Assembly: GCA_041651055.1 (NCBI GenBank)
Contig: JBAZJW010000001.1
Location: 373,325 to 437,324 of the forward strand
DNA: 64,000 bases
Direction: 5' to 3'
DNA from: Minisyncoccota bacterium
GTDB lineage: Bacteria > Patescibacteriota > Minisyncoccia > Phycocordibacterales > UBA5272
The notes under the pieces were generated by a model. It was given only the letters and a program-made list of their open reading frames with translations. It was not told the DNA's origin and searched no databases. Position 1 is the first letter of the stretch, and every line of letters starts with the position of its first letter. Below, piece after piece: positions 1 to 15,141 of this stretch. A program made the translations under genes and the position numbers.

Positions 1-2057
1 GTTTTGTGTTGTGAGAATCACGCTATCATCACCCTTCACGAACAATGCAGAGAGAAGCTCATCACCATCTTCGAGGCGAATAGCGATCAAACCATTTCGA
101 CGCACATCCTTAAAGCTCTCGGCTGATGACTTCTTAATCGTACCGTTCTTTGTCACCATCATGAGTGATATACCTTCACTTTCTCCACCCTTTGACTGCT
201 TCATATCCTTCGGCATTGGAAGAATACTTGTCACATGTTCACCATCGGTCAATTGAAGGAAGTTCATGATAGATTTTCCACGAGTAGCACGCTTACCTTC
301 TGGAAGGTCATACATCTTGATCTGATACGCCTTTCCTTTATCTGTAAAGAAGAGCATGTCGCTGTGTGTCGAGGTCGTGAGCGACATCGTTACGAAGTCC
401 TCTTCTTTGGTATTCAAATCCACCACCCCTACACCACCACGTTTCTGTGTGCGGAATTCATCTGGGTCAGTACGCTTTACATAACCACCTGAGGTATAAA
501 CGAGCACTTCTTCACGGTCTGGAATCAAATCTTCTGGGTTGAATTCCTTCGCTTTATGTTTCACGATTTTGGTACGACGAGCGTCACCGTATTTTTCTTT
601 GATATCCGTAAGTTCATCTTTAATGATGCTCATCATTTTCTTAACTGACGCAAGAATTATTTGAAGCTCTGCGATAAGCGCTTGTACTGCTTTCAAATCA
701 TCTTCGATTTTCTTTCGTTCAAGACCAGCGAGACGCTGCAACTTCATTTCAAGAATAGCTGTCGCCTGAATATCTGAAAACTTAAACTTCTTCACAAGGG
801 CAGAATGTGCCTCTGGTGTATCTTTCGACGCACGAATAGTCTTGATGATTTCATCGATGTGATCAAGTGCTTTCTTGAGACCAAGCAAGATGTGTTCCTT
901 TTCAAGTGCACGCTTCAAATCAAATTCCGTACGACGACGCACCACTTCTTTACGGTGTCCAATGAATGCTTCGAGTGCGCCTTTGAGTGCGAGTGTCTGA
1001 GGAACACCGTCGACAAGAGCTACCACGTTGTAATGGAATGTACTTTCGAGTTCTGTATGTTTATATAAATAGTTTAAAATCTTCTGTGGTTGTGCACCAG
1101 ATTTCAAATCGATAACAACACGAATGTCTTTTGTCGATTCGTCGCGAAGTCCTTTAATGCCTTCGATTTTCTTTTCACGTACAAGGTCTGCAATATTTTC
1201 AATCAAATTACTTTTAAGAACACGATATGGAATAGATGTGATAATAATTTGGAATTGTCCACTCTTTGTTTCAAAAATTTCCGCTTCACCACGCACCACC
1301 ACACCTCCACGACCTGTCGCATACGCCGCACGAATATCTGATTGACCAAACGCCACACCTCCTAGTGGAAAATCAGGACCCTTCACGAATTCACAGAGAT
1401 CCTCTGTCGTCGCCGTCGGATTATCAATCAAATGCACCGTTGCATCAAGAACTTCAGTGAGGTTATGTGGAGGAATGTTTGTCGCCATACCCACCGCGAT
1501 ACCAAGCGTTCCATTGAGAAGCAAGTTAGGAACAGCCGTTGGAAGCACGTGAGGTTCTTTTTTTGTACTGTCATAGTTAGGAACCATGAGCACCGTATCT
1601 TTTTCAATATCACGAAGCATTTCCATAGACAGCTTAGCCATCTTCGCTTCGGTATAACGCATAGCAGCTGCACCGTCACCGTCAATTGATCCGAAGTTAC
1701 CTTGTCCCATTACGAGTGGATATCGATACGAAAAGTCTTGTGCGGTTTTTGTCATAGCATCATACACAGAAGCATCACCATGAGGGTGATAGTTACCGAG
1801 CACTTCTCCGACAACGGTCGCGGACTTTCGGAACTTGGCCCCTGGTGTGAGGCCCATATTATTCATCGCAAAAAGAATACGACGGTGCACTGGCTTGAGA
1901 CCATCACGTGCGTCTGGAAGTGCACGAGATGTAATAACCGACATCGCATAATCCAAATACGCAGTACGCATTTCTTCTGCGATATTGACCTGCTGATGAG
2001 CACTGTGAGCTCGTGGTTCTACGGGGGATTCTGAAGAAGAAATAGTCTTTTTTGCCA
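1..2057 (-). CDS. gyrA: DNA gyrase subunit A, N-terminal ~685 aa. Start at 2057; the C-terminus runs off the window edge.
   Basis: Reverse-complement translation from ATG at 2055-2057 gives [62 protein letters not shown]...GNYHPHGD...AAMRYTEA, the type IIA topoisomerase A-subunit signature. Not in the ORF track because no stop lies inside the window. Confidence 0.85.
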
Positions 2058-2234
2058 TAAGAATCAGGTGATAATAATCATTTTAGTATAGCATAAAAGG
2101 GACCGAAAGACCATATGCTTCTACAAAAATATTCAATAAAACAATACTCGATAATTAATGAAATACATGAGAATTATGCATCGTTTAAATATTAAATATT
2201 GTTTTATTGAATATTCTTAATTATGGACGTTCTC

Positions 2235-2573
2235 CTATTTTATGTACGTCTCTTTTCCTTCCAAAAGTGAACCGCTTGATTTACCAATAGAATGGAATTG
2301 GTCGTACGCTTCATTCCAAAAACTGGACAAGGCCTCACCTGGAGATTCCATGTTTGAAGGAGTGCTCGTACTTTGTACAACGAGTGCTGAATCATCCCTG
2401 ACATACCTATCATGCCAAAATCCGTAATCCGTATACAAAATAATCCCCGCTATCAGCACAGTGATACTTCCCGAAAAAATAAATGCATACACATGTTGCA
2501 TGTGTTTCGGCTGTCGCCGCAAAAAATCTATATAATATGCAAGACTTGTATATCGTTTAAGATGACGCTTCAT
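2235..2573 (-). CDS. hypothetical small membrane protein
   Basis: 112-aa ORF with one hydrophobic segment (FIFSGSITVLIAGIILY). No recognisable family. Confidence 0.3.
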   Translation of the reverse strand: MKRHLKRYTSLAYYIDFLRRQPKHMQHVYAFIFSGSITVLIAGIILYTDYGFWHDRYVRDDSALVVQSTSTPSNMESPGEALSSFWNEAYDQFHSIGKSSGSLLEGKETYIK

Positions 2574-2586
2574 GTATCGTTATTCG

Positions 2587-2952
2587 TTAGGACGTTCTTC
2601 GTTCTTCGTTAAATTTCTTAATAAATGCACTCAACATTTTCATAACATCTTCGAGTTTTAATGCAATCATATTAAAATCTTCATCAGCTATATACCCTAA
2701 TTTATGAGCCAACAAAAGTTGTGTTTCTACTTCTGCACCAGACCCATGTGAAATTTTTAAAAACTGAAGAAACTCCTTTTGCCCCCTTTTGCTTCCTTCA
2801 GAAATATTAGAGGGTATAGAAACTGCAGCCCTGCGAATCTGAGATGTTAAACCATATAATTCTTCTTTAGGAAAAGACTTAGTTGACTGATATATATCAA
2901 AACAAACATCAAAAGACTTTTTCCATACATCAAGATCTTTATACGAACTCAT
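2587..2952 (-). CDS. four-helix-bundle protein of the 23S rRNA intervening-sequence protein family
   Basis: 121 aa. DVWKKS...IPSNISEG...EFLQFLKISHGSGAEVETQLLLA matches the TIGR02436 / S23-ribosomal-like family. The gene is bracketed by inverted CGTTCTTCGTTAGG repeats, and its last 8 codons are encoded by the repeat. Confidence 0.7.
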   Translation of the reverse strand: MSSYKDLDVWKKSFDVCFDIYQSTKSFPKEELYGLTSQIRRAAVSIPSNISEGSKRGQKEFLQFLKISHGSGAEVETQLLLAHKLGYIADEDFNMIALKLEDVMKMLSAFIKKFNEERRTS

Positions 2953-3135
2953 GATAGCGTTAGTATATCCCCCTAACGAAGAACGACCTAACGAAGAACG
3001 GATTATCTACATTCCTCTAGTTCAAAAAATTGTTTTAGCTACGAGAAGCGACAATTTTTTGAAAGAAGGCGTACGCATAGTACGACGACTGCCAAAAATG
3101 CAGTCGCGACAAAGCAGATGAAGCAATTTTTTGAA

Positions 3136-3771
3136 CTAGAGTTCGTGGAAGAGAACAATTTCACCAAGCTTCCCATCAATATCCTTCTTCTTAATCGTAA
3201 GCTTCTCCACTGGTTCCACTTTTTCGGACCCCGCTTCTTTCAAAAAGACTGGAAGTGATTGTTCATCATAGTCCATCGGAATAATAAGCTTCGGTTCGAG
3301 TGCGACAGCGAGCTTCTGCGCGTCGTACGCATTAAGAAGGAATCCATCATGTCCAACTGGAACAAAAAGAAGATCTGTCTCATCGATGATTTCTTTGTGC
3401 TCGGAAGCGAGTGCTTGTGAGAGCGCTCCTAAGAACGTAATACGAATACCGTCTAAGGTAAGTACATAACTTGTATTCTGATATTCCTTTTCTTTTTTGC
3501 CGTCCATCAACTTGGTAGTCGTACCGAATCCTTTAATGAAAATATCCTTCACTTCATACTCTCCTGCACCACGAATAACGAAAGGAACTTTTTCTCCATG
3601 CTCTGTCTGTTCAGCGCCGTTGTAATCTGGGTGGTTCGTCGTAATGAGCGTAATATCCGCTCCATATTTGGCAACTTTCCCCTTCCCTTCTTTTGATACT
3701 GGGTTTATAGCCACGACCAAATCCCCGACTGTTAATTTGAAATGCTCTCGTCCGAAATAAGTGATAATCAT
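3136..3771 (-). CDS. MBL-fold metallo-hydrolase
   Basis: ITYFGREHFKL...PVSKEGK...HPDYNGAE...HDGF pattern typical of beta-lactamase-fold Zn hydrolases. The ORF track begins at 3813, but the likely start is MIITYFG at 3771. Confidence 0.55.
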   Translation of the reverse strand: MIITYFGREHFKLTVGDLVVAINPVSKEGKGKVAKYGADITLITTNHPDYNGAEQTEHGEKVPFVIRGAGEYEVKDIFIKGFGTTTKLMDGKKEKEYQNTSYVLTLDGIRITFLGALSQALASEHKEIIDETDLLFVPVGHDGFLLNAYDAQKLAVALEPKLIIPMDYDEQSLPVFLKEAGSEKVEPVEKLTIKKKDIDGKLGEIVLFHEL

Positions 3772-3791
3772 AGATCGCAGTCTACCAAAAT

Positions 3792-3826
3792 TAGTCAAAA
3801 GAAAAAAGCCCACTTGCGCGGGCTTT
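3792..3826 (-). terminator. intrinsic terminator for the 3852..4181 gene
   Basis: On the minus strand, AAAGCCCGCGCAAGTGGGCTTT hairpin followed by TTTTTTCTTTT. Confidence 0.7.
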
Positions 3827-3851
3827 ATTGAACACTGACGAGGTGCAGGTG

Positions 3852-4181
3852 TCAGTGTTTCGCAAAGCAGGATGTCACCTGCTTTGTAACCCGATAGGTC
3901 TCGCGACCATATCGGCCTCTCCGATCAACGGACAGTTTGACAGCCTTCCCTGTCGTTGCAACGCATTCCTGGTTGTTAGCGTGGTAGAAACGGACACCCT
4001 TGATGGTTGCATAGTTTGACTCGCAACCGTCTGAGGTGAAACCGTTAACCACACCACCCTTTTCCTCCACCCACAAACAAGCGTTAGTGAAGTGAAGATT
4101 TGCCGGAGCTTGGAAGTACCAGGCATTAGCACTCGATGCCGCAACAACGAGAACCATCACAAGTGAATTTTTCAGCTTCAT
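3852..4181 (-). CDS. secreted cysteine-rich small protein. Signal peptide MKLKNSLVMVLVVAASSANA; mature part ~88 aa with 4 Cys.
   Basis: Likely start at MKLKNS (4179-4181). Hydrophobic h-region ending in ANA-W. Lies in a ~55% GC island. No family recognised. Confidence 0.5.
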   Translation of the reverse strand: MKLKNSLVMVLVVAASSANAWYFQAPANLHFTNACLWVEEKGGVVNGFTSDGCESNYATIKGVRFYHANNQECVATTGKAVKLSVDRRGRYGRETYRVTKQVTSCFAKH

Positions 4182-4192
4182 GATAGCCCCCA

Positions 4193-4528
4193 TTAGCGAC
4201 GAGGTGTCGCAATGACCTCGTAGAAGCTCCCCGTCTCCGTCTTGCAACGAAAGACCTTGAAGAGCGACGCGTCGAGAGTGTTCACAACCTCAGTCACAGT
4301 GGAAGTGTATTTCCCACCACCGAGGTACAACGTATCTCCGACGGTGACACCAGGGAAATCGTTGATTTGTGCCGTGAGAACCCCCAAGCTATGCGCTTGG
4401 GTACTCGGATGGTAGGTCCGAGAGATCACGGCCGTCATACCTTTGGCGTGACGGTGTACTGGGTTTTTAACGATGCCCCTCGCATCGGGCAACACTTCCA
4501 GTGTTGCCATACGGTTACCGAAGACCAT
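4193..4528 (-). CDS. hypothetical protein in the GC-rich island
   Basis: 111-aa ORF with an AGGAG Shine-Dalgarno 7 nt upstream. Co-directional with, and 11 nt upstream of, the secreted protein gene. Confidence 0.45.
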   Translation of the reverse strand: MVFGNRMATLEVLPDARGIVKNPVHRHAKGMTAVISRTYHPSTQAHSLGVLTAQINDFPGVTVGDTLYLGGGKYTSTVTEVVNTLDASLFKVFRCKTETGSFYEVIATPRR

Positions 4529-4774
4529 TTTGGTGCTCCTAGTTGGTTATGGACCCAAGAAATTTGGGACCAAAAATAATATATCACAAATAAACTGAAA
4601 AGTCAAGTTTAAGATAGCATTGTTGGTCAAAAATACCTGGCGTACATTACGCCGGCGGCTTTTTTATTTGTATATCCATCTCTCAATAACTTGACATTTA
4701 CACTTTATATGATAGTGTAATAAACGAACATTACACGGGCGTGTGATGAATATATTGAAAAAAGGAAAAAGGAA

Positions 4775-5035
4775 ATGACAAAAACAACAGCATGGGAAAC
4801 CTTCACCTGGGCGATCGTGAGCGTCGCGATAGCCTACCTAGCTCTAGCTCTGGGAAGCACGATCACCCCAGACAAGGAACCTGTCCTCAAACTGATTGCA
4901 GGCCTCCTCGGATTGGCGGCCAGCGGAGCCGTCTGCTCCTACATCGTCAAGATGTTCGCCAGTGCCATTCGTGGTACACAGAAAAAGGAGCGCTCGAAAG
5001 ACGACCCCTCGATGCATGGCTGGGGGCCATATTGA
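4775..5035 (+). CDS. small membrane protein, 2 predicted TM helices
   Basis: 86 aa; WAIVSVAIAYLALALG and LIAGLLGLAASGAVCSYIV hydrophobic segments. GC-rich. Confidence 0.45.
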   Translation: MTKTTAWETFTWAIVSVAIAYLALALGSTITPDKEPVLKLIAGLLGLAASGAVCSYIVKMFASAIRGTQKKERSKDDPSMHGWGPY

Positions 5036-5061
5036 AACCAAAACCAACAAAGGAGACCGCC

Positions 5062-5262
5062 ATGAAGGCGTTCAAAGCTATTTTCCAGATCGGAATTAAC
5101 GGACTTTTTGTCTTTCTCTTCTACAAATGGGTGATAGAGCCTTTATGGCAATTCTCGCCACGGCTGACCGTTCTTTTTGCGCTTGCAACACTCTTCGTAT
5201 TCTTGCTTGCAACGAAAGAAGACGAAAGTCCTCACAACGACAACGCGCGGGCCGGACAGTAA
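5062..5262 (+). CDS. small membrane protein, 2 predicted TM helices
   Basis: 66 aa starting MKAFKAIFQIGINGLFVFLFY. Preceded by AACAAAGGAGACCGCC-ATG. Confidence 0.45.
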   Translation: MKAFKAIFQIGINGLFVFLFYKWVIEPLWQFSPRLTVLFALATLFVFLLATKEDESPHNDNARAGQ

Positions 5263-5295
5263 GCCTTTGTGCTTCGCCCCCCTATTAACCGCCTA

Positions 5296-5326
5296 GCGCA
5301 TCACGCCGGCGGTTTTCTTATTTTTG
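5296..5326 (+). terminator. putative terminator: short GC hairpin plus T-run
   Basis: CACGCCGGCGG followed by TTTTCTTATTTTTGT. A near-identical module lies at 4648-4676. Confidence 0.4.
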
Positions 5327-5566
5327 TATTACTTTGTATTCATACTGTTATTCAAATTGAATATTGAATATTTGATTCATTAAATATTTTTGACCCCTAA
5401 CCCCTAACTGTTGACTCCTAACTGTATTTAAAGTAGTATTACTCCCATCTATTAATAGATAATCGTTCTGGCGTAATCCCCGACTTGTGTGTAGTAAACA
5501 ACAAGACGGAGCCCAGACCGCAAGGTTAGCCGCCTTTCGTGGGCGGCCATTTTTTTACCCAACTAT

Positions 5567-6649
5567 ATGACAACAAGTACAGAACAAGTAGTGGCACCGT
5601 TTGCTGTAGGTGCAGTATTCTTTAAGGAAGAAGATATTGTAGAAGGTATCGTCGTTGCTATTGAAAAGGCAGCGCTCTACGTCGACCTCGGTACATCAGG
5701 AACAGGTATCATTTATGGTATCGAATTCATGAATGCGCGAGACGTTATCAAGCGTATTAGTATCGGAGATACTATTTCAGCGAAGATTGTTCTTCGTGAA
5801 AATCCTGAAGGCTACGTAGAACTTTCTCTCAAGGAAGCTCGTCAGGCTCTTATGTGGAATGACGCAGAACAGGCCATCAAAGAGAAGCGTGTTATGGATC
5901 TCGTTGTTAAGGATGCAAACAAGGGTGGACTTATTATCGAATGGCAAGGTATGGCAGGATTCCTTCCAGCGTCACAGCTTAAGGAAGAAAACTATCCTCG
6001 TATCGAAGATGGCGATAAGGACAAAATCCTACGCGAACTTAAGAAGCTTATCGGTAAGCGTGTATCAGTAAGTATTATTTCTGCAATTCCAAAGGAAGGT
6101 AAACTTATCTTCTCAGAAAAAGATGGAGGATCATCAAAGGAAACCAAGGAAGTTGCTATGGGCAATTACCTCGTTGGTGATGAAGTAGAAGGTACAGTAA
6201 CTGGTGTCGTCGAATTCGGTATCTTCGTTAAATTAGAAGACGGTGTCGAAGGTCTCGTTCACAAGAGTGAAATTGACTGGGGGCTTGTTGAAGACACTAA
6301 GGCTCACGCTCGTGTCGGAGAAAAAGTTCGTGCCAAGATCATCGAAGTGAAGGATGGAAAGATTTCACTTTCACTCAAAGCTCTCAAGGAAAATCCTTGG
6401 AAGGAAGCTGCAAAGAAGTACAAGAAAGGAGATGAGGTCGCTGGTGTTGTGATTAAGTTCAACAAGCACGGAGCACTCGTATCTATTGAAGAAGGTGTAG
6501 CAGGACTTGTACATGTATCTGATTTCGGAGACGAAGCAGCACTACGTGCAACACTTTCACTTGGAAAGAGTTACAAGTTTTCAATCACCCTCTTTGATGC
6601 AAATGAAGAGAGAATGACGCTTACATACGGAGAAGTGAAGAAGGCGTAA
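5567..6649 (+). CDS. rpsA: 30S ribosomal protein S1-like, four S1 domains
   Basis: 360 aa with repeated S1-fold segments (GxV.G.V....fG.FV....g.eGLvH.Se). Short S1 as seen in reduced genomes. Confidence 0.7.
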   Translation: MTTSTEQVVAPFAVGAVFFKEEDIVEGIVVAIEKAALYVDLGTSGTGIIYGIEFMNARDVIKRISIGDTISAKIVLRENPEGYVELSLKEARQALMWNDAEQAIKEKRVMDLVVKDANKGGLIIEWQGMAGFLPASQLKEENYPRIEDGDKDKILRELKKLIGKRVSVSIISAIPKEGKLIFSEKDGGSSKETKEVAMGNYLVGDEVEGTVTGVVEFGIFVKLEDGVEGLVHKSEIDWGLVEDTKAHARVGEKVRAKIIEVKDGKISLSLKALKENPWKEAAKKYKKGDEVAGVVIKFNKHGALVSIEEGVAGLVHVSDFGDEAALRATLSLGKSYKFSITLFDANEERMTLTYGEVKKA

Positions 6650-6704
6650 AGATAGAAGCTCGAAGCTTAAGACTGGAAGCTGGAAGAGAAACACAACACA
6701 GAAA

Positions 6705-6738
6705 AAGCGGCGCCTACGGCGCCGCTCTTCCTTTTTAC
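6705..6738 (+). terminator. intrinsic terminator downstream of rpsA
   Basis: AGCGGCGCC-TACG-GCGCCGCT hairpin followed by CTTCCTTTTTAC. Flanked by inverted GGAAGCTGGAAG / CTTCCAGCTTCC arms. Confidence 0.6.
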
Positions 6739-6756
6739 TTCCAGCTTCCCTCTTCC

Positions 6757-6846
6757 AGCTGTTAGCTGTTAGCTGTTAGCTGTTAGCTGTTAGCTGTTAG
6801 CTGTTAGCTGTTAGCTGTTAGCTGTTAGCTGTTAGCTGTTAGCTGT
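6757..6846. repeat. tandem 9-mer repeat (AGCTGTTAG), ~10 copies
   Basis: Direct reading. It overlaps the last 5 codons and the stop codon of pth. Confidence 0.95.
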
Positions 6847-7376
6847 CCATTATATCTCTCCATCGCTTTCTGATATCCATCACTCGCGATAGTTTGCAGT
6901 GCACCTAATACACGAGAAGCAATTTCACGAAGTGATGTCTCCTCATCATCCCTAATCTTTCCCATGACATAATCCTGCACATCAGAACCTGATGGTGCGA
7001 GCACGACTTTACCATCGACATCATGTGGAGCAATACCGATACGAATACGAATAAAATCTTTTTTACCAAGAGACTCAATAATGTTTTTTACACCATTATG
7101 TCCACCATCTCCTCTATCAAATGAAATTCTAAATGTTCCAAACGCTAGATCTTTGTCATCATAAATAACAACAAGCTCGCGACCTTCGTGATAGCGTAAG
7201 TATTCACTCACCGCTTTGCCGCTTTCATTCATAAATGTTTCTGGTACGAATATTTCGTAGTCACTCATATGAGCAATGTCGCTTTCTATAGTCGCAAGCA
7301 TCACACGCGCAGCATTGTGACGTGTGCGCGCATACTTTTCACCAGGGTTGCCGAGCGGAACGAGTGTATAAATCAT
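6825..7376 (-). CDS. pth: peptidyl-tRNA hydrolase
   Basis: MIYTLVPLGNPGEKYARTRHNAARVMLA...HNGVKNII matches the Pth family N-terminal and catalytic-His motifs. Confidence 0.85.
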   Translation of the reverse strand: MIYTLVPLGNPGEKYARTRHNAARVMLATIESDIAHMSDYEIFVPETFMNESGKAVSEYLRYHEGRELVVIYDDKDLAFGTFRISFDRGDGGHNGVKNIIESLGKKDFIRIRIGIAPHDVDGKVVLAPSGSDVQDYVMGKIRDDEETSLREIASRVLGALQTIASDGYQKAMERYNGQLTANS

Positions 7377-7471
7377 ACTCGCAGTCTAGCATTAGCTAGA
7401 CTGCGAGTAAATTTTTAATTTTTAGTTCTTAATTTTTAATGAAACACGTAATGCAGGTATCGGTATTTACC

Positions 7472-7500
7472 TAAAAACTAAAAACTGGAAACTAAAAACT
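7472..7500 (+). promoter_or_regulatory. A-rich AAAACT box, copy 1
   Basis: TAAAAACTAAAAACTGGAAACTAAAAACT. It sits 32 nt before a TATACT -10 (7533-7538) and the lepB ATG (7548). Confidence 0.5.
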
Positions 7501-7523
7501 ATTCATGTGTTGCATAGCAACAC

Positions 7524-8276
7524 ATGAATCTATATACTGACCCCATAATGATTTCTTCTCTTGAACAAACACTGCTCGGTTCGCTCTCTGATGTTCTACA
7601 GAATCCTGTGTCGATGGTTATCTTTGGACTTCTTTCACTACTCATTATCGCTCTTATTTTTGCGAGCGTTTTTCCAACATGGAGACAAGGTCTCGTTGCC
7701 ATTAAAGTGCTCGAAAAAGAAGAAAAACCATCGTCACTCCTTCTTTGGATTATAGGAATAATTATTCTCGTAAAATGTATTCAAGGGTTTCTCATTCAAC
7801 CATTCATTGTCGATGGAGGATCCATGCTTCCAACGTATCATGATAAAGAGTTCCTCCTCGTCGATAAATTTTCATACATTTTTGGAGAACCAAAACGTGG
7901 AGAAGTTATGATTTTCAAACTCTACGAAAGCGACACCAATCCGTATCAAGGGAAACATCTCATCAAACGCGTCATTGGATTACCTGGTGAACGAATCGTT
8001 GTACAAAGTGGTGTGACCACCATTTACAACAAAGAGAACCCTAACGGATTTATTCTTGAAGAACCATACGTATCATACAAAGATTTACAAAAAGATACAG
8101 ATATTACCTTAGATGATCACCATTATTTTATGATGGGAGACAATCGCGCACAGAGTTATGACAGTAGATCGTGGGGAGCGCTCGATGCGAAAGATATCAA
8201 AGGTCAAGTGTTGTTCCGTGTGTATCCGTTCTCTACGGCTGCGTACGAGCCAGGAAGGTTTCTTTATACAAAATAG
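7524..8276 (+). CDS. lepB: signal peptidase I
   Basis: GGSMLPT...KRVIGLPGE...GDNR motifs of the S26 family. The functional start may be ATG 7548 (MISSLEQ...). Confidence 0.8.
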   Translation: MNLYTDPIMISSLEQTLLGSLSDVLQNPVSMVIFGLLSLLIIALIFASVFPTWRQGLVAIKVLEKEEKPSSLLLWIIGIIILVKCIQGFLIQPFIVDGGSMLPTYHDKEFLLVDKFSYIFGEPKRGEVMIFKLYESDTNPYQGKHLIKRVIGLPGERIVVQSGVTTIYNKENPNGFILEEPYVSYKDLQKDTDITLDDHHYFMMGDNRAQSYDSRSWGALDAKDIKGQVLFRVYPFSTAAYEPGRFLYTK

Positions 8277-8304
8277 TATTCGTAATTAATAACCGCCACA
8301 CTGT

Positions 8305-9639
8305 ATGAATGATGAAGTAAAAAAAGAAATAGCAAAAAGTGAGACGAAAGAAATAAAAAAAGAAACGCCTGTTTCTTTGAAAGGAATGGATGATCTTTTC
8401 GATGAAGACTACTACGCCTTCCAAGGTCTCTTTGAAAAGGCCCAAGAGGTCGCGGTGTACTATGGGTTCAAACCAATAGAAACCCCTCTTCTTGAGCAAG
8501 AAGAGGTCTTCGTTTCAGCTATCGGCGAAGGAACAGATATCATCGATAAAGAAATGTACACCTTCAAGACAAAAGGAGGTGAGCGTCTTGCTATTCGTCC
8601 AGAATATACCGCCGCTGTTATGCGCGCATACCTCGAGCACGGCATGCAAAATCTTTCACAGCCGATTCTCCTCTATTCATACGGACAAACCTTTCGCCAC
8701 GACAAGCCACAGCGCGGAAGATGGCGTCAGTTCAGACAATTCAACTTGGAAATTTTGGGTACAACAAAATCAATCGCTGATGCGCTGATTATTCGTACGC
8801 TCATGACTATTCTCGAAGAGTATGGATTCAAAGATCTCGTTATTGATATCAATTCAATGGGAGACAAAGAAACCCGTCCAGCGTTTATCAAAGAGCTCAC
8901 CAATTACTACAAGAAGCATCTCGAGACATTGTGTAAGGACTGTAATGAACGCATCAAAAATAATCCTCTTCGTCTACTCGACTGCAAGCAGCCACAGTGT
9001 CAGCCATTCAAAGAAAATGCACCATCATCGATTTCGTATCTTTCCAACGATGCTCGTAGTCACTTCAAGGAAGTGCTTCAGTACCTCGAAGAAATGGGTA
9101 TTCCGTATCGCGTAAATAATTCTCTTGTTCGTGGACAGAGCTATTACACACGCACAGTCTTTGAAGTTATCAAAGTTGACGTTGGTGAAGATGGAAAAGA
9201 AAAAGAAATCACTATCACAGGAGGAGGAAGATATGACAATCTCGCAAAGATGATGGGAAGCAAAAAGGATGTCCCTGCTGTCGGAACAGGTCTCAGTATG
9301 GAGCGTATTCGTATGTTCCCAGAATGTAAAGCCATCGCGCCGCGCATCATGAAGCCACCGAAAGTATATTTCATTCAGCTTGGGTTCGAAGCGAAGCTAA
9401 AGAGTCTCTGCATTATGGAAGTACTCCGCAAAGCTCGTATTCCAGTACACCAGTCGATCTCAAAAGACTCACTTGGTGCACAGTTAGCTAGTGCTGAAAA
9501 AATGGAAGTGCCTTACTGTATTATTTTCGGACAAAAAGAAGCAATGGATAATACGGTGATTGTGCGCAACATGTCAGTGCACTCACAAGATACCGTGAAG
9601 ATTGATGCTTTGAGTGATTATATTAAACACTTGAAATAG
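8305..9639 (+). CDS. hisS: histidine--tRNA ligase
   Basis: RPEYTAAVMRAY (motif 2 region) and GGGRYDNL (motif 3) of class II HisRS. The K/E-rich N-terminal 27 aa may not be translated; an alternative start is at 8386. Confidence 0.85.
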   Translation: MNDEVKKEIAKSETKEIKKETPVSLKGMDDLFDEDYYAFQGLFEKAQEVAVYYGFKPIETPLLEQEEVFVSAIGEGTDIIDKEMYTFKTKGGERLAIRPEYTAAVMRAYLEHGMQNLSQPILLYSYGQTFRHDKPQRGRWRQFRQFNLEILGTTKSIADALIIRTLMTILEEYGFKDLVIDINSMGDKETRPAFIKELTNYYKKHLETLCKDCNERIKNNPLRLLDCKQPQCQPFKENAPSSISYLSNDARSHFKEVLQYLEEMGIPYRVNNSLVRGQSYYTRTVFEVIKVDVGEDGKEKEITITGGGRYDNLAKMMGSKKDVPAVGTGLSMERIRMFPECKAIAPRIMKPPKVYFIQLGFEAKLKSLCIMEVLRKARIPVHQSISKDSLGAQLASAEKMEVPYCIIFGQKEAMDNTVIVRNMSVHSQDTVKIDALSDYIKHLK

Positions 9640-9666
9640 TCGGTGGTCTATGGCTAATAGACAAAT

Positions 9667-9703
9667 ACGAGCGGCGCCGAAGGCGCCGCTCGTATTTACT
9701 TTA
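9667..9703 (+). terminator. intrinsic terminator after hisS
   Basis: ACGAGCGGCGCC-GAAG-GCGCCGCTCGT hairpin followed by ATTTACTTTAT. Confidence 0.55.
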
Positions 9704-9750
9704 TACCCAAAGGTGATAGTATCTCAGTAAACCAACCAAAGGAGACCATC

Positions 9751-10251
9751 ATGGCCACCCCGCTCATTCAATACGTCGCGCAACCCAACGCTCGCGCTCA
9801 GAAACCAGAAGACACATGTCCCGCGTGTGGAAATCCACACGAAGAAGGAGAACCCCTCGTACCGTATCCAGTCACAGAAAAAGAAGCGGAACTCGTACTC
9901 CCAATTTTCCGGAATATAGGAGCAAAACTTCGTGTGGTTTTTGTTCCAGAACAAATTCCGAAATACCTCGCACGAGGTGTCAAAATCGAAAACGGCGCCG
10001 CTGTTTTTTCTGGGGATTTTCAAATGTTCGAAAACTCCAAGCCGTGTTTCAAGCTTTGGGCAAGTACAGAGGTCGAGGTCTTCAAAGAATTCAGATATGT
10101 GAGTGTTGATCTTGACTGGGACCCTGCAGACATTCTTTCCGTTGGATGGGCTTTTAATCCGAAAGACATCTACTGGAATTCCAAATGGACCGCTGAGGAT
10201 TTCCTTCGTGTCCACGGTCATAGAAACGGCCATCGCCAAAACAGTCAATGA
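9751..10251 (+). CDS. hypothetical protein, GC-rich orphan
   Basis: 166 aa. Strong SD ACCAACCAAAGGAGACCATC-ATG. ~52% GC versus ~40% for neighbours. The overlapping minus-strand ORF 9724..10296 is judged spurious. Confidence 0.5.
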   Translation: MATPLIQYVAQPNARAQKPEDTCPACGNPHEEGEPLVPYPVTEKEAELVLPIFRNIGAKLRVVFVPEQIPKYLARGVKIENGAAVFSGDFQMFENSKPCFKLWASTEVEVFKEFRYVSVDLDWDPADILSVGWAFNPKDIYWNSKWTAEDFLRVHGHRNGHRQNSQ

Positions 10252-10373
10252 ACCAACTGCACAACAACAGCAAGTCCACTCCGCAATCGCCCACACAAGT
10301 GGGCTTTTCTTTTGTCTTACCGTCTTCTAGCTTCTTGCTTCTGGCTTTTTTCTGTGCTAGAATTGTCAAACAT

Positions 10374-10622
10374 ATGTCAAACGTAAACGTAGAAGTAAAA
10401 AAGAACCCGAGCGAAAACGCTCTTTCTCTTGTTCGTCGCTTTCAGAAGCGTGTTCAGGAATCAGGCATCCTTCCTCGTGTTCGTGGAATCCGTTACAGTG
10501 ATCGTCCACTCTCAGAATTAAAAACAAAACGTGCCAAGCTAAAGAAATTAAAGAATCTTGCAAAGTACGAACAGGACAAGAAAATGGGTAAGGTTGTGGA
10601 ACGAAAGAAAGGCCGCAGATAG
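10374..10622 (+). CDS. rpsU: 30S ribosomal protein S21
   Basis: MSNVNVEVKKNPSENALSLVRRFQKRVQESGILPRVRGIRYSDRPLSELKTKRAKLKKL matches the S21 family pattern (ALRRFKR...G.L.E.RRR..YEKP...RKR). Confidence 0.7.
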   Translation: MSNVNVEVKKNPSENALSLVRRFQKRVQESGILPRVRGIRYSDRPLSELKTKRAKLKKLKNLAKYEQDKKMGKVVERKKGRR

Positions 10623-10726
10623 AAATTAGCCAATAGGGTGTAGGGTATAGTAAAATGCATAATACCGAACGTGTTATGCATTTTGCATTTCACTATTGGC
10701 TATACCCTAGTGGCTAACAACTAAAA

Positions 10727-11125
10727 ATGTCTATACTAGAAAAAAATAACTTAACAGTAATTCGTAAGAACGGAAAAATTCCCGCTCTTCCTTTTTTAGA
10801 TCTCAAAGAAAAAATTCTTGGGAAAAGCTACGACCTTACGATTGTTTTTTGTTCACCAGAAGAATCTCGTGAACGAAACAAAACGTATCGAGACAAAGAC
10901 TACCCGACGAATATTCTTTCATTCCCCCTTTCAGATACAGAAGGAGAAATATACATATCGCTCATAACAGCGAGACGTGATGCTCACACATTCGAAATGT
11001 CATACCAAAAATTCCTACATCTCCTTATCATCCACGGCATGCTTCATTTGAAAGGACACGATCATGGTAGTACAATGGAAGAGCTAGAAGATTCGTATGT
11101 ACGCAAATTCTTCGCGATAAACTAA
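10727..11125 (+). CDS. ybeY: rRNA maturation endoribonuclease YbeY
   Basis: HGMLHLKGHDH metal-binding motif (H..LHL.G.DH). Confidence 0.85.
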   Translation: MSILEKNNLTVIRKNGKIPALPFLDLKEKILGKSYDLTIVFCSPEESRERNKTYRDKDYPTNILSFPLSDTEGEIYISLITARRDAHTFEMSYQKFLHLLIIHGMLHLKGHDHGSTMEELEDSYVRKFFAIN

Positions 11126-11152
11126 TACTCTGTGGCACGAACTATACAAGAC

Positions 11153-12298
11153 ATGATTGTGGGTATCGATATCGGAAGCGGAAGCTTGCGTGCAATTGGT
11201 GCGATTCAACAAGAAGGCGTCAGGTTCCCTGTCGTTGTCGCTACTTACAAAAAAAGTATTGAGGGTATTGACCGCGGCACCATCACGGACAGTGCAGAAG
11301 TTACTCATGCTATCATCGATGCCGTTACGACACTCGAAGAAGAGTCTGGTCGCAACACCCTTCACACACTCATCTCTCTCGGAGCGGCGGGTCTTTCATC
11401 ACACCATGCAAATGGTCACGCCCAAGTGTCTCGCGGCGACGCATCAGTGACTGATTTAGATATTGAAAATGCAATTAAAGATGCCAACCGTGGGGTACCA
11501 GACATTCGCAACAAAGCCGTCATACATACGATTCCCATGAAGTACAAGTTAGACGGTGTCGATGTTCCTGGAAATATTATCGGTGTACGCGGTAATAAAC
11601 TTGAAGTACGAACCCTCTTCGTAACCTATCCACTACAATGCATGACCGTGCTCAAAAAAGCCCTCGCTGATGCCGGTGTACGCATCACAGACATCGTTGC
11701 TGGCCCTGTTGCTGAAAGCATTCCCCTTCTTACCAAGAAGCAGAAGGTCGCAGGTGTCGCCCTCATCAATATAGGTGCTGGTGTCACTTCTATTCTCGTG
11801 TATGAAAATAATATTCCCCTCCTTGTCTCCACTATTCCTGTTGGAGGCGATGACATTACCAAAGACATTGCCCTTGGGTTAAAAGTCACACTCGAAGAAG
11901 CTGAAGAAATAAAATGTAGACGAGCACAAACACATTTCGAGCGTCGTGTAGAAGAAATTATCGAAGCACGTCTAGAAGATTTGTGTGTAAAAATAAATAA
12001 AGAACTCTCGCGCATCGGTAGACAAGAACTACTTCCTGCTGGCATCGTCGTGTGTGGTTCTGCCTCACTTGTCTCTCGACTTGAATACGTCTTTCGTAAC
12101 GAACTCAAACTACCAATCAAACTCACCACCAATGAGCTTGTACGGCTAACCAACGATGCGCTTCGCGACAGTGGATGGGCACGTGTTTATGGTCTCACAT
12201 TCCTCGCACCGAACGACAGTGAAAATGATGTTATTCGTGAACTTTTCGCATCGTTCATCACGCGTATCAAAAAAATGGTTACTCAGTTTTTGCCATAG
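11153..12298 (+). CDS. ftsA: cell division protein FtsA
   Basis: MIVGIDIGSGSLRA actin-like ATPase N-terminus; located directly upstream of ftsZ. The ORF track starts at GTG 11132. Confidence 0.8.
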   Translation: MIVGIDIGSGSLRAIGAIQQEGVRFPVVVATYKKSIEGIDRGTITDSAEVTHAIIDAVTTLEEESGRNTLHTLISLGAAGLSSHHANGHAQVSRGDASVTDLDIENAIKDANRGVPDIRNKAVIHTIPMKYKLDGVDVPGNIIGVRGNKLEVRTLFVTYPLQCMTVLKKALADAGVRITDIVAGPVAESIPLLTKKQKVAGVALINIGAGVTSILVYENNIPLLVSTIPVGGDDITKDIALGLKVTLEEAEEIKCRRAQTHFERRVEEIIEARLEDLCVKINKELSRIGRQELLPAGIVVCGSASLVSRLEYVFRNELKLPIKLTTNELVRLTNDALRDSGWARVYGLTFLAPNDSENDVIRELFASFITRIKKMVTQFLP

Positions 12299-12427
12299 GG
12301 CCCAGTTAGGGGTTAACCGTTAGGAGTTAGGGGTACACATAAAAGCCTTATTTTGTTTACTGTTTTCTTACTCCTAACCCCTAACCGCCAACCCCTAACG
12401 GGGTTGGCAACAACACAAATTTTTTCT

Positions 12428-12457
12428 TTGCACAAGCCCTCACTGGTTTGCTATAGT
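12428..12457 (+). promoter_or_regulatory. putative sigma70-type promoter for ftsZ
   Basis: TTGCAC (12428-12433), an 18-nt spacer, then TATAGT (12452-12457), 27 nt before the ATG. Confidence 0.4.
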
Positions 12458-12483
12458 TTTAGTATTAATCAACACATATTCCT

Positions 12484-13752
12484 ATGGCAAAAGTAAATCC
12501 AGAAATTGAAAGCTTCGCTCGTATTAAGGTCATCGGTATCGGTGGTTCTGGTAAAGGTGCACTCAATCATATGATCAATTCAAAACTCCAAGGAGTTGAA
12601 TTCATCGCGATGAACACAGACACACAAGATCTTCATCACTCTCTCGCTGAGAAGAAAATTCATATCGGTAAAAATCTCACCAAAGGACTTGGAGCAGGAA
12701 TGGACCCGGAAATTGGAAAACGTTCTGCTGAAGAAACTCGTGAGGAAGTCCAAGATGTTATTAAAGGGGCAGATATGGTATTCATTGCAAGCGGTATGGG
12801 TGGTGGAACGGGAACAGGCGCCGCGCCTGTGATCGCATCTATTGCAAAGAACGAAGGCATTCTTACTATCGGTGTCGTGACCAAACCATTCTTCTTTGAA
12901 GGAGCGTCCCGTATGAAGCTTGCAGAACGCGGTCTTGAAGAACTCGAGAAGGAAGTGGATGCACTTATTGTTATTCCAAACGATCGACTTCTTTCTGTCA
13001 TTGATAAAAACACATCTGTGAAGCAGGCTTTTGAAATGTGTGATGAAGTTTTGAAACAAGCAGTTGAAGGTATTTCTGATATTATTCGTACAGCCGGAAC
13101 AATCAACCTCGACTTTGCTGATATTAAGAGAATTTTGAAAGACTCAGGAACGGCTCTTATGGGTGTAGGGCGAGGCATGGGTGAAAATCGCGCACGTGAA
13201 GCAGCTACGGCAGCTGTAAATTCCCCTCTTCTTGATGTTTCTATTCATGGAGCAAAGGGTGTACTCTTTGCTATCTACGGAGCAGAAGATCTTGGAATGC
13301 TCGAAGTACAAGAAGCTGCGAAGATTATTACAGAATCAGTTGATAAGGATGCAAAGATTATTTTTGGTATCGCAACAGATCCAACTCTTAAAAAGGATGA
13401 GATCAAGGTGACTGTTATTGCAACAGGATTTCCAAGTGGATTTTCTACACGCGGACATTCTTCCCCTTCATCTCCTGTTATTGAAACACGACGAGAGACA
13501 GAAGCCCTTCACCCAGAACCACGTATCGAAAAGACAGAAACAATTCGTGAGGCAGTAAAGGAAGCCCGTGAATCACATGTCGCACCGACAGATAGACGTA
13601 TTGATCTTGAAATAGGAAATGAAGAAACAAAAGAAGACGAAGATGCGAAGAAACCAAAAGTAGAAGCAAAGAAAACAGTATTTAAATTTGATGACGATGA
13701 AGAGGATGATGAATGGGAAGCATTGCCACCATTCCTCAGGCGAAAGAAGTAA
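12484..13752 (+). CDS. ftsZ: cell division GTPase FtsZ
   Basis: GGGTGTGAAPVIA tubulin signature. Long E/K-rich C-terminal linker. Confidence 0.9.
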   Translation: MAKVNPEIESFARIKVIGIGGSGKGALNHMINSKLQGVEFIAMNTDTQDLHHSLAEKKIHIGKNLTKGLGAGMDPEIGKRSAEETREEVQDVIKGADMVFIASGMGGGTGTGAAPVIASIAKNEGILTIGVVTKPFFFEGASRMKLAERGLEELEKEVDALIVIPNDRLLSVIDKNTSVKQAFEMCDEVLKQAVEGISDIIRTAGTINLDFADIKRILKDSGTALMGVGRGMGENRAREAATAAVNSPLLDVSIHGAKGVLFAIYGAEDLGMLEVQEAAKIITESVDKDAKIIFGIATDPTLKKDEIKVTVIATGFPSGFSTRGHSSPSSPVIETRRETEALHPEPRIEKTETIREAVKEARESHVAPTDRRIDLEIGNEETKEDEDAKKPKVEAKKTVFKFDDDEEDDEWEALPPFLRRKK

Positions 13753-13885
13753 AACAAATAAAATTACTTCATCTGCTTCGTTGCACAAGATTTTTGTTCC
13801 CGCGAAGTACTATTCGTACATCTTGGTCACAAAAATCTTGTGCGCCTTGCATCTAAAGCAATTTTCTTAGTTTTGGTAATTAAAA

Positions 13886-13914
13886 AACCGAGTCGTACGA
13901 CTCGGTTTTTTTAT
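13886..13914 (+). terminator. intrinsic terminator after ftsZ
   Basis: AACCGAGTCGTACGACTCGGTT perfect hairpin followed by TTTTTTTATT. Confidence 0.8.
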
Positions 13915-13989
13915 TACTTCTTTCGGCATCATCAGGTGAATTGATAATTTAAAATTTTTAATTTTTATTAAACACTACCAAAAACGATG

Positions 13990-13998
13990 TGATATAAT
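13990..13998 (+). promoter_or_regulatory. extended -10 element TGATATAAT
   Basis: TGnTATAAT lying 8 nt upstream of ATG 14007, implying a leaderless or near-leaderless transcript. Confidence 0.5.
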
Positions 13999-14006
13999 TG
14001 ACTTCT

Positions 14007-14966
14007 ATGCCCACCACATCCACTCTCTCCTCTTCCCTCTCACCTCTTGCCTACGATTTAATAATCGTAGGAGGTGGTCCCGCTGGTACTGCTGCGGCCG
14101 TCTATGCTGCTCGTAAGCAATTACGCTCGCTTCTCATTGTAAAAGAATGGGGAGGTCAATCAACGGTCTCAGATGATATTCAAAACTGGATTGGCACACC
14201 ACACATTTCTGGTGCGAATCTCGCAGCATCATTCAAGTCTCATATCGATGAATACAGAGGTGATATTCTTTCTGTTGCTGAAGGTTCTGGTGTCACCGCT
14301 ATTACAGGCACAGACGGCGACTTCACCGTCACTCTAGAAAACGGAAACGAACACAAAGGAAAGACCGTGATCATTGCCACAGGATCATCTCGTAGGAAAT
14401 TAGACATACCTGGTGCAGATATTTTCGAAAACAAAGGCATCACCTATTGTGCTTCATGCGATGGGCCACTTTTTTCTGGCATGGATGTAGTTGTTGTTGG
14501 TGGAGGAAATGCAGGCTTTGAATCTGCAGCTCAACTTCTCGCTTACTGTAAATCCGTCACACTTCTTTCACGAAGTGAGCCTCGGGCAGACGCCATTACC
14601 GTTGCAAAATTAAAGCAGCGTGAAAACTTTACCCTCGTTACCAATGCCGTTCCCAAGAATGTGCAGGGTTCAGTCTTTGTAGAATCTATTACCTACACCA
14701 AGTCAGAAACAAACGAAGACGTCACACTCCCTGTAGCTGCTGTCTTTGTCGAAATAGGACAACTTCCAGCCACAGACTTCGCGAAAGCTATTGTGAATCG
14801 TGATGCGACGAATCACATCATCATCAATCCACGTACACAAGAAACCTCTACTGTTGGCATCTGGTCAGCCGGTGACTGTACGGACGTGCTCTATCATCAA
14901 AACAATATCGCAGCTGGAGATGCTGTGCGAGCCTTAGAAGATATCTACCTCCATATTCACGCCTAA
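14007..14966 (+). CDS. trxB: thioredoxin-disulfide reductase-like FAD/NAD(P)-dependent oxidoreductase
   Basis: YDLIIVGGGPAGTAAAVYAAR FAD-binding Rossmann fold, CASC redox-active disulfide, VVVVGGGNAGFESA NADPH site. The ORF track starts at TTG 13998. Confidence 0.7.
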   Translation: MPTTSTLSSSLSPLAYDLIIVGGGPAGTAAAVYAARKQLRSLLIVKEWGGQSTVSDDIQNWIGTPHISGANLAASFKSHIDEYRGDILSVAEGSGVTAITGTDGDFTVTLENGNEHKGKTVIIATGSSRRKLDIPGADIFENKGITYCASCDGPLFSGMDVVVVGGGNAGFESAAQLLAYCKSVTLLSRSEPRADAITVAKLKQRENFTLVTNAVPKNVQGSVFVESITYTKSETNEDVTLPVAAVFVEIGQLPATDFAKAIVNRDATNHIIINPRTQETSTVGIWSAGDCTDVLYHQNNIAAGDAVRALEDIYLHIHA

Positions 14967-15023
14967 GTCGTTAGTCGTTAGTCGTTAGTCGTTAGTCGTT
15001 AGTCGTTAGTCGTTAGTCGTTAG
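14967..15023. repeat. tandem 8-mer repeat (GTCGTTAG), ~7 copies
   Basis: Direct reading. It begins immediately after the trxB stop codon. Confidence 0.95.
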
Positions 15024-15100
15024 GTAAATTGTAATGCGGGATAATTTGCTTTGCAAATTATCCCGCATTACCTAACGAAGAACACCCTAACGTCCTAACT
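15021..15100 (+). repeat. 80-bp hairpin module, copy 1
   Basis: Perfect stem GTAATGCGGGATAATTTG-CTTTG-CAAATTATCCCGCATTAC, followed by CCTAACGAAGAAC-ACCCTAACGTCCTAACT. Confidence 0.9.
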
Positions 15101-15141
15101 GCAAAATGGTCAACGGCTGTCCATTTTGCTATGCTTGAAGG

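Follow-up and report, generated by a model that had tools for sequence, protein, structure and literature searches.

We examined a compact block of four short genes in a 64,000-nucleotide (nt) stretch of contig JBAZJW010000001.1 (the whole stretch is called the window below), which comes from a Paceibacteria-like bacterium of the Candidate Phyla Radiation (CPR). The block spans window positions 3797-5329, and its genes, here named cys113, p111, tm86 and tm66, form two divergent pairs set between two core genes, one for a metallo-β-lactamase (MBL)-fold hydrolase and the other for ribosomal protein S1 (rpsA). We read the block as probable lineage-specific cargo of the spacer between these core genes. 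An independent gene finder, applied to an identical Logan contig (L001), agreed with the four open reading frames (ORFs) of the block. The features of the locus are as follows (aa, amino acids; TM, transmembrane; SD, Shine-Dalgarno; UTR, untranslated region):

3136..3771, minus strand: MBL-fold hydrolase gene, the left flanking core gene (Pfam Lactamase_B_3, 1.5e-26), which neighbours rpsA in nearly all relatives
3797..3831, minus strand: terminator of the p111-cys113 unit (hairpin 3805-3826 plus T-run; -18.9 kcal/mol, z -3.5)
3852..4193, minus strand: cys113, a predicted exported protein of 113 aa with protein accession MFA5132080.1 (ORF, TAATG overlap, independent gene call)
4193..4528, minus strand: p111, a predicted cytoplasmic, beta-rich protein of 111 aa (ORF, independent gene call)
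4536..4606, minus strand: promoter and 5'UTR of the p111 unit (promoter scan, folds, alignment)
4637..4675, no strand assigned: terminator-like hairpin between the divergent units (4637-4666 scores as a terminator on both strands)
4691..4774, plus strand: candidate promoter region of the tm86-tm66 unit (TTGACA at 4691-4696 and TAGTGT at 4713-4718, seen by eye; not returned by the promoter scan)
4775..5035, plus strand: tm86, a predicted two-TM hairpin membrane protein of 86 aa with a basic C-terminal tail (hydropathy)
5062..5262, plus strand: tm66, a predicted two-TM hairpin membrane protein of 66 aa with an acidic C-terminal tail (ORF, SD, hydropathy)
5287..5329, plus strand: terminator of the tm86-tm66 unit (hairpin 5287-5313 plus T-run; -14.4 kcal/mol)
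5411..5566, plus strand: conserved promoter and structured ~115-nt leader RNA, the right-hand border of the variable region (blastn, alignments, covariation)
5567..6649, plus strand: rpsA, the right flanking core gene (Pfam S1, four domains, 3.8e-41)

On the minus strand, the TAA stop codon of p111 overlaps the ATG of cys113 (TAATG). The promoter upstream of p111 is sigma70-like (TTGACT at 4606-4601, a 17-nt spacer and TATATT at 4583-4578 with a TG), and it is followed by a hairpin in the 5'UTR (4550-4572) and an SD sequence, AGGAG, at 4536-4540. The N-terminus of cys113 reads MGAIMKLKN-SLVMVLVVAASS-ANA followed by WYF, with lysine residues, a hydrophobic core (Kyte-Doolittle 11-residue mean of 2.57) and an AXA site; if translation began at 4181 instead, the protein would have 109 aa. 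Hydropathy heuristics predict a Sec-type signal peptide cleaved after ANA24, which would leave a mature protein of 89 aa (about 10 kDa, four cysteines, pI 9.2, net charge +5). The cys113 stop codon lies ~26 nt before the strong terminator, which also insulates the MBL gene. Among 5.8e9 clustered proteins cys113 matched only itself; no family in Pfam, PHROGs, NCBIfam or PADLOC matched it, the mature part had no sequence match in PDB, and its AlphaFold2 model was unusable (predicted local distance difference test, pLDDT, of 38).

The plus-strand pair faces the other way. By a heuristic, the hydrophobic segments of tm86 are residues 8-32 and 36-62 and those of tm66 residues 7-25 and 30-53. A hairpin in the tm86 5'UTR (4729-4748; -9.0 kcal/mol, z -3.3) and an SD-like stretch, AGGAAA, precede the tm86 ATG, while tm66 has an AAGGAG SD sequence 7 nt upstream and a terminator ~25 nt past its stop codon. 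A 31-nt direct repeat (84% identity) links 4645-4675, inside the bidirectional hairpin, to 5299-5329, and a third copy at 4728-4742, partial and weaker, is suggested by 3 matches where 0.57 were expected. This terminator module is the only direct repeat found, it brackets just the tm86-tm66 unit, and one copy of the element occurs in a relative (L020), where it closes that locus's own cargo. Neither an integrase or transposase gene nor an att-type site was found at the block, whose flanking genes are housekeeping genes; no phage or type IV secretion system (T4SS) genes lie near it, no tRNA gene lies in window positions 1-16000, and the 64-kb window holds no paralogues of the four genes elsewhere.

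In base composition, positions 3850-5280 reach 49.1% GC against 41.2% for the whole window, and no other 1,430-nt segment of the 64 kb is richer in GC (they rank in the top 0.08% of sliding windows, at about 2.3 standard deviations). The individual genes stand at 50.4% (cys113), 55.0% (p111), 56.2% (tm86) and 47.0% (tm66), the internal spacer at 4529-4774 at 33.7% and the flanking genes at 42.9 and 43.1%. GC content at third codon positions (GC3) is 0.55-0.65 in the block genes compared with 0.37±0.07 for 46 long ORFs (z 2.4-3.8), and codon usage is atypical as well (z -2.2 to -4.0).

An earlier note on this DNA, made from the letters alone, had described much of this arrangement. Its two co-directional minus-strand genes, one of 111 aa, are p111 and then cys113; its signal-peptide protein with four cysteines is cys113, as hydropathy, the AXA site and the cysteine count indicate heuristically; its two small two-TM proteins facing the opposite way correspond, on hydropathy heuristics, to tm86 and tm66. 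The intrinsic terminator said to close the minus-strand pair was recovered at 3805-3826 by both scan and fold, and the related modules of GC-hairpin plus T-run proved to be the genuine 31-nt repeat. A compositionally atypical block is likewise borne out by windowed GC and by GC3 and codon usage outliers; the 55-57% GC proposed for it is too high, although the block is still the highest-GC 1.43 kb of the window.

The MBL-rpsA spacer among relatives

A scan with RpsA gave 80 related loci, from metagenome-assembled genomes of Paceibacterota, Nomurabacteria and Parcubacteria-type CPR, with RpsA identities of up to 92%. The MBL gene and rpsA are divergent neighbours in ~65 of the 80 (tblastn), and the spacer between them varies from 175 to 4,113 nt among close relatives. 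cys113, p111 and tm66 are absent from all 80 loci, and tm86 gave a match, a weak one, in L022 alone (tblastn). The smallest spacers (L014, L062, L033) consist of just the MBL promoter region and the conserved rpsA leader, and conservation at the DNA level (blastn) is limited to window positions 5425-5562 (~135 nt before rpsA) and ~30 nt before the MBL gene. Spacer GC exceeds locus GC in many relatives. When spacer ORFs were clustered, cargo families were seldom common to different spacers: elsewhere the cargo includes a basic '...KYKDRR...' family, two-TM proteins, a RelE-like pair (by eye), insertion sequence fragments and large surface proteins. Because cargo is seldom shared between relatives and spacer lengths vary, we conclude that the MBL-rpsA spacer is a hypervariable hot spot. 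The block is missing from 80 relatives despite conserved MBL-rpsA synteny, and it is compositionally atypical too, so that what the earlier note named as refuting its view was not observed.

The plus-strand unit has a different distribution from the rest of the block. Although a search of 5.8e9 clustered proteins returned tm86 alone, divergent relatives occupy the same position in L022 (phmmer 3e-9) and L009 (1.8e-4), and tm86 aligns with two-TM proteins of L025 and L029, with A23, G27, P32, G43 and I57 invariant. These tm86-like loci lack p111 and cys113. Three of the four tm86-like genes are GC3-enriched relative to their own rpsA, the L009 gene being equal to it. On these alignments, tm86 is a putative divergent member of a small two-TM hairpin family that resides at the MBL-rpsA site in some relatives, and because the related ORFs share its position in all four loci, part of this unit seems to belong to the locus itself and to diverge rapidly there. 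tm66 had no family match and no relative among the fetched loci; the large databases were not searched for it. An assignment of tm86 to PF18895 (T4SS_pilin) was rejected, as its score of 24.6 bits (E 2.6e-5) lies below the gathering cut-off of 26.6 with one TM segment aligned, and the relatives in L009, L025, L029 and L022 have no match to the family.

Two kinds of cargo in other spacers may be recorded here. A protein of 95-169 aa with a basic C-terminus (...RGRK.KYKDRR...) is encoded in the MBL-rpsA spacer of at least nine relatives and is absent from the window; for the two members scanned (L020 and L021), no Pfam family was found. The genes, all on the plus strand, are:

L002, 8391-8849; L004, 8783-9109; L005, 9167-9592
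L011, 9107-9463; L012, 8686-9075; L020, 8986-9495
L021, 9143-9562; L034, 2835-3260; L060, 6175-6462

The spacer of L024 contains, at 9208-9682 on the minus strand, adjacent ORFs of 84 and 72 aa which by eye have the look of a RelE/ParE-type toxin and its antitoxin.

The p111 family and its genomic contexts

A large-database homology search found four close relatives of p111. An exhaustive profile search (HMMER) then yielded nine genuine representatives at 50% clustering among 1.84e9 proteins, all of 100-125 aa, and a further distant member was found in L039. Matches of 2,911, 808, 461 and 380 aa were discarded as repeat-protein artefacts (Big_9/cadherin, Kelch-like and similar). The window ORF matches the profile at 7.8e-44 (hmmsearch), and the family motifs are G-M-T-x-x-I-S-R-x-Y-H...H-x-L-G-V...F-x-G-V-x-V-G-D...K-V-[FY]-R-C-x-T-x-x-G-S-x-Y-E-V-I. 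The p111 family, newly delineated here, is rare and unannotated and consists of stand-alone proteins of ~100-125 aa. Scans of p111 against Pfam, PHROGs, NCBIfam and PADLOC, and of 12 family members against Pfam, gave sub-threshold matches only (for p111, Phage_attach at E 0.079 and Avs2 at E 0.011), profile matches among PDB sequences were set aside as designed-repeat artefacts, and the AlphaFold2 model of p111 reached a pLDDT of 56 from a four-sequence alignment. Searches for p111 and cys113 in phages and plasmids (tblastn) and in IMG/VR came back empty.

Comparison of p111 with its relatives in L082 and L092 gave ω values of 0.13-0.17 at dS >1; p111 is a real gene under purifying selection. 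The NCBI annotation (P0002, WC444_01995) starts p111 at an internal methionine, giving 78 aa. Since the N-terminal 30 residues (RGIVK...R.AKGMT) are conserved among homologues, this version is probably truncated, and the layout of the SD sequence and promoter also supports 111 aa.

The genomic contexts of the family are varied and often include genes for RNA polymerase or primase. In L082-L085 and L094 the order is RpoC, p111, a 191-aa ORF and DnaG; in L092 and L105 p111 directly follows RpoC; and in L104 it lies downstream of a divergently transcribed DnaG, with a 27-aa ORF fragment on its other side whose end is RpoC-like (by eye). Further relatives are found between TrmD and RpoB (L098), before DnaX (L097), and next to a CCA-adding enzyme gene (L106), a tRNA (L107), an oxidoreductase (L108) and a PDT-like gene (L100). 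Neither cys113 nor tm86 nor tm66 accompanies p111 elsewhere, and in about 10 of 13 contexts p111 is alone. A downstream partner is present in the window (cys113), in L106 and in L097, and in no other locus: the L106 partner is a 121-aa protein with a signal-peptide-like N-terminus and two cysteines, without similarity to cys113, and the L097 partner is an overlapping, soluble 92-aa protein with no signal peptide. cys113 is, as far as its sequence can tell, an orphan add-on to the p111 unit. Where p111 lies downstream of rpoC, its alleles share ~75% to ~30% identity, against 86-91% for the C-termini of the neighbouring RpoC proteins, so that p111 there is a fast-evolving or frequently replaced allele. 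For a comparison of core divergence with the p111-bearing contigs, rpoC, dnaG and related genes were sought in the window and the rpsA loci, but the sequence at hand contains none of them.

The regulatory layout of the unit recurs with it. The window, L082, L097 and L106 have in common TTGAC, a -10 box, a UTR hairpin of differing sequence and AGGAG...CAAAATG; TTGAC, the -10 box and the SD sequence are retained across an alignment of four p111-family loci, and folds place the UTR hairpin alike, in different sequence, in the window, L082 and L097. A terminator hairpin follows the p111 relatives in the loci read (L082, L106, L107). The left terminator of the block matches the one after the p111 homologue in L082 at 86% identity over 35 nt and, at 93.5% over 31 nt, a hairpin of L027 that lies close to the MBL gene; its origin, judged from these matches, is ambiguous between a p111-type terminator and a hairpin resident at the locus.

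In most members of the family GC3 is 0.56-0.72, compared with 0.18-0.47 for neighbouring core genes on the same contigs, and synonymous sites are saturated between members. The high-GC3 loci are:

L082, 4199-4531; L092, 703-1026; L093, 180-497; L097, 91-462
L098, 223-552; L100, 981-1307; L106, 125-451

In the distant members from L104, L105 and L107, GC3 resembles that of the host. The persistent excess would reflect either repeated acquisition from a GC-rich source, or else selection or GC-biased conversion acting on these genes.

Borders of the spacer and neighbouring features

The right-hand border of the variable region is a leader with homologues just upstream of rpsA in ~30 loci (for example L014 9884-9995, L020 9885-10000 and L027 8700-8812). 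It comprises a promoter-like TTGACT-17-TAGTAT, a palindrome (ATCTATTAATAGAT), a helix P1 (CGTTCTGG/CCAGACCG), a helix P2 of variable length and a terminator-like hairpin (5529-5547) with a T-run, which ends 10 nt before the rpsA ATG; an SD sequence is missing, and a separate promoter would not fit. The covariation is strong: 89.8% of cells are paired compared with 27-49% in slid controls, and double (compensatory) changes occur in 14 of 18 pairs compared with 4-7 in those controls. In L010-L013, L017 and L031 the leader stands 60-70 nt further from rpsA, and the added sequence holds a -10-like box. The leader has no match in Rfam 15 and was not included in a 2020 survey of ribosomal leaders (PMC7247131), and we found no description of it, or of the block proteins, in the literature. 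On this evidence it is a candidate new S1 (rpsA) leader or attenuator, or alternatively a small RNA. Between the last terminator of the block and the leader promoter, the AT-rich spacer carries tandem CCCTAAC-type repeats (ACCCCTAACCCCTAACTGTTGACTCCTAACTGT) at 5396-5425 (plus strand).

At the left-hand border, the MBL start lies ~26 nt from the T-run of the block's terminator, with an extended -10-like box, TGn-TAGACT, between them (by eye). The region upstream of the MBL gene (3772-3800, minus strand), like its counterparts in L014, L062 and L027, seems to have only such a box (TGnTAGAAT or TAGACT), 7 nt 5' of the ATG (by eye). The MBL mRNA would, it seems from this spacing, be leaderless or nearly so, with its promoter abutting the terminator T-run.

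Downstream of rpsA follow pth, lepB, hisS, ybeY, ftsA, ftsZ, trxB and an ABC transporter, and beyond the MBL gene on the other side lie gyrA, AIPR, a methyltransferase and an SBP. A 23S rRNA-intervening-sequence protein gene (2587-2952, minus strand; PF05635, 1.3e-38) separates the MBL gene from a 112-aa gene. None of the 80 related loci has a counterpart of it; there, as a rule, the MBL gene and the homologue of the 112-aa gene are near each other. This makes a second insertion specific to the lineage, located across the MBL gene from the block and in a low-GC (~35%) stretch. Other ORFs of high GC3 (0.50-0.60) in the window are 9724-10296 (minus) and 9751-10251 (plus), which overlap on opposite strands and of which the plus-strand ORF has no Pfam match, 36335-36820 (plus) and 32826-33596 (plus); these may be further acquired genes.

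Origin and possible roles of the block

We interpret the block, with a probability of roughly 60%, as lineage-specific cargo of two terminator-insulated transcription units in the hypervariable MBL-rpsA spacer. The structural and evolutionary part of this interpretation is strong and its functional part weak. The first unit, on the minus strand, would comprise the sigma70-like promoter, 5'UTR hairpin, p111, a translationally coupled cys113 and the terminator, and the second, on the plus strand, a promoter, 5'UTR hairpin, tm86, tm66 and their terminator. The earlier note's idea of a single four-gene cassette was not upheld, since p111 and tm86-like genes are distributed separately and the pairs have their own promoters and terminators; two units with separate histories would have been joined as a mosaic.

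Cargo may have been exchanged when DNA that had been taken up recombined homologously with the conserved flanks. This is suggested by the lack of mobility genes, by the position of the p111 unit beside very conserved essential genes and by published islands and gene transfer in Patescibacteria, where genomic islands and mostly intra-phylum horizontal gene transfer are documented (PMC12455944). The terminators would let foreign units be expressed while the MBL gene and the rpsA leader stay undisturbed. As one product is predicted to be exported and two to be membrane proteins, action at the envelope is the most plausible, in competition, host contact or surface variation, and p111 could be a cytoplasmic partner (an immunity protein, chaperone or regulator) combinable with different exported proteins.

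Several points weigh against this interpretation. The functions of the four proteins rest on inference, as does the recombination mechanism, which is deduced from conserved flanks and missing mobility genes. The closest relative, at 92% RpsA identity, is too distant to time the insert or to judge its presence or absence at strain level. The GC3 excess could come from GC-biased gene conversion at a recombination hot spot instead of a GC-rich donor, and the tm86-like genes at the same site in relatives suggest that part of the block belongs to the locus and did not come from outside. The left terminator is similar to the p111 terminator of L082 as well as to the resident hairpin of L027, so the first unit may have been assembled in more than one order, for instance by entry of cys113 into a pre-existing p111 unit. 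The coding status of cys113 and tm66 is argued from ORF, SD sequence or coupling, signal features and GC3, and is to that extent provisional.

Among other explanations, cys113 might be a Sec-dependent bacteriocin or exported toxin stabilised by disulfides, with immunity provided by tm86/tm66, p111 or both. Sec-dependent class II bacteriocin loci with small membrane immunity proteins, for instance those of the enterocin P or lactococcin 972 type, resemble the block in that a small cationic exported protein (here with four cysteines, a mature mass of ~10 kDa and pI 9.2) stands beside small multi-TM proteins; here, however, the membrane genes are divergent, have a promoter and a terminator to themselves and are not found with p111 at other loci, relatives of tm86 occur where cys113 is absent, and the conserved element is the cytoplasmic p111. 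Searches of Pfam, PHROGs, NCBIfam, PADLOC and PDB returned no bacteriocin, toxin, immunity or defence family, and genes for processing or export are missing: the closest ABC transporter stands ~10 kb off among housekeeping genes. The block is species-specific and compositionally atypical, as expected of such a system, and the pairing of a p111 homologue with a different exported protein in L106 is like that of polymorphic effector/immunity pairs, while the divergence of p111 alleles against a steady RpoC is typical of immunity-like loci; even so, p111 mostly stands alone and its L097 partner has no signal peptide. With the signal peptide as the sole defining feature in its support, we hold a toxin/immunity role to be possible but unlikely. 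Polymorphic toxin systems and their orphan immunity genes offer a related comparison, in view of the variable downstream partners, frequent solitude and quick divergence of p111, but the loci show no toxin domain, secretion system or PT-delivery domain, the L097 partner is not exported and the conserved gene comes first. An extension of this comparison, quite unlikely in our estimation, would make p111, as immunity protein, export chaperone or regulator, the conserved cytoplasmic component of a hitherto unrecognised CPR-restricted polymorphic exported-effector system, whose unit would spread by homologous recombination beside rpoC, dnaG, rpoB and rpsA and pick up partners such as cys113, with tm86/tm66 giving envelope-level protection. 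A type II toxin-antitoxin reading of p111-cys113 was rejected: small overlapping genes fit, but no family matches and cys113 has a signal peptide.

The genes could instead be native, fast-evolving residents of a recombination hot spot whose GC3 stems from local constraint or GC-biased gene conversion, an idea reportedly put forward for bacteria by Lassalle et al. in 2015. That cys113, p111 and tm66 are missing from all 80 related loci, that the p111 locus here differs from that of most other family members, and that host-like GC3 in the distant L104, L105 and L107 fits amelioration after transfer all tell against such residence. In its favour are the tm86-like genes at the same position in four relatives, three of them GC3-enriched, and the high p111-family GC3 in most AT-rich contexts despite saturated synonymous sites; overall we think it unlikely. 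There is a smaller chance still that cys113, tm66 or both are chance-open spacer and that only p111, perhaps with tm86, is real. Missing cys113 homologues, missing tm66 relatives among the fetched loci and a cys113 model without confident structure would follow from this, whereas the TAATG coupling, textbook signal peptide and nearby strong terminator of cys113, the well-spaced SD sequence, two clean TM segments and close terminator of tm66, GC3 above GC2 (the GC content at second codon positions) in both, and calls of both by the independent gene finder would not. Least probable of all, and highly so, is a decayed prophage or phage moron remnant in which tm86 and tm66 are holin/antiholin-like and p111 is a structural protein like those of head-tail attachment. 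The p111 unit packs promoter, UTR hairpin, gene and terminator into a compact module that recurs at different places in chromosomes, and it is moron-like in its autonomy, but it lies between essential cellular genes and outside any phage context; tm86 has the size, hairpin layout and charged C-terminal tail of class II holins (size and layout also recall T4SS_pilin), but its pilin score is below cut-off, its relatives do not match and neither T4SS nor lysis genes are nearby. The Pfam hints are very weak: Phage_attach matched one of 12 p111 family members only, and Phage_holin_3_6 (E 0.059) the L009 relative of tm86. PHROGs gave nothing significant (best E 0.066), tblastn found no match in 50,697 phage genomes (INPHARED), IMG/VR held no such locus, a BFVD fold search lent no support, and no endolysin, integrase or other phage gene lies within ~10 kb. 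A classical integrative element was also rejected; composition and polymorphism fit, but integrase, transposase, tRNA, att site and flanking repeats are lacking.

Lineage-specific cargo in a variable spacer, the interpretation we prefer, finds its nearest parallel in flexible genomic islets, with which the block shares conserved syntenic core flanks, differing and mostly unannotated cargo, atypical composition and a lack of mobility genes. It departs from them in being very small (~1.6 kb, four genes) and housed in a streamlined CPR genome, in being GC-richer than its host where acquired DNA is usually AT-rich, and in cargo that brings its own promoters and terminators. As a kind of locus, a variable islet of orphan genes is ordinary; the phylum is under-studied. 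CPR bacteria (Patescibacteria) spend their lives attached to other cells and have very small genomes, whose accessory genes are mostly uncharacterised. The MBL-rpsA spacer offers a concrete case of variation among them, as an apparent landing pad for terminator-insulated mini-operons of predicted exported and membrane proteins, and the locus defines a small new protein family, p111, with a GC3 excess and frequent proximity to RNA polymerase and primase genes. Should the pairing of p111 with its changing exported partners turn out to be one of effector and immunity, these proteins would be candidate mediators of competition or host contact in bacteria that remain uncultivated.

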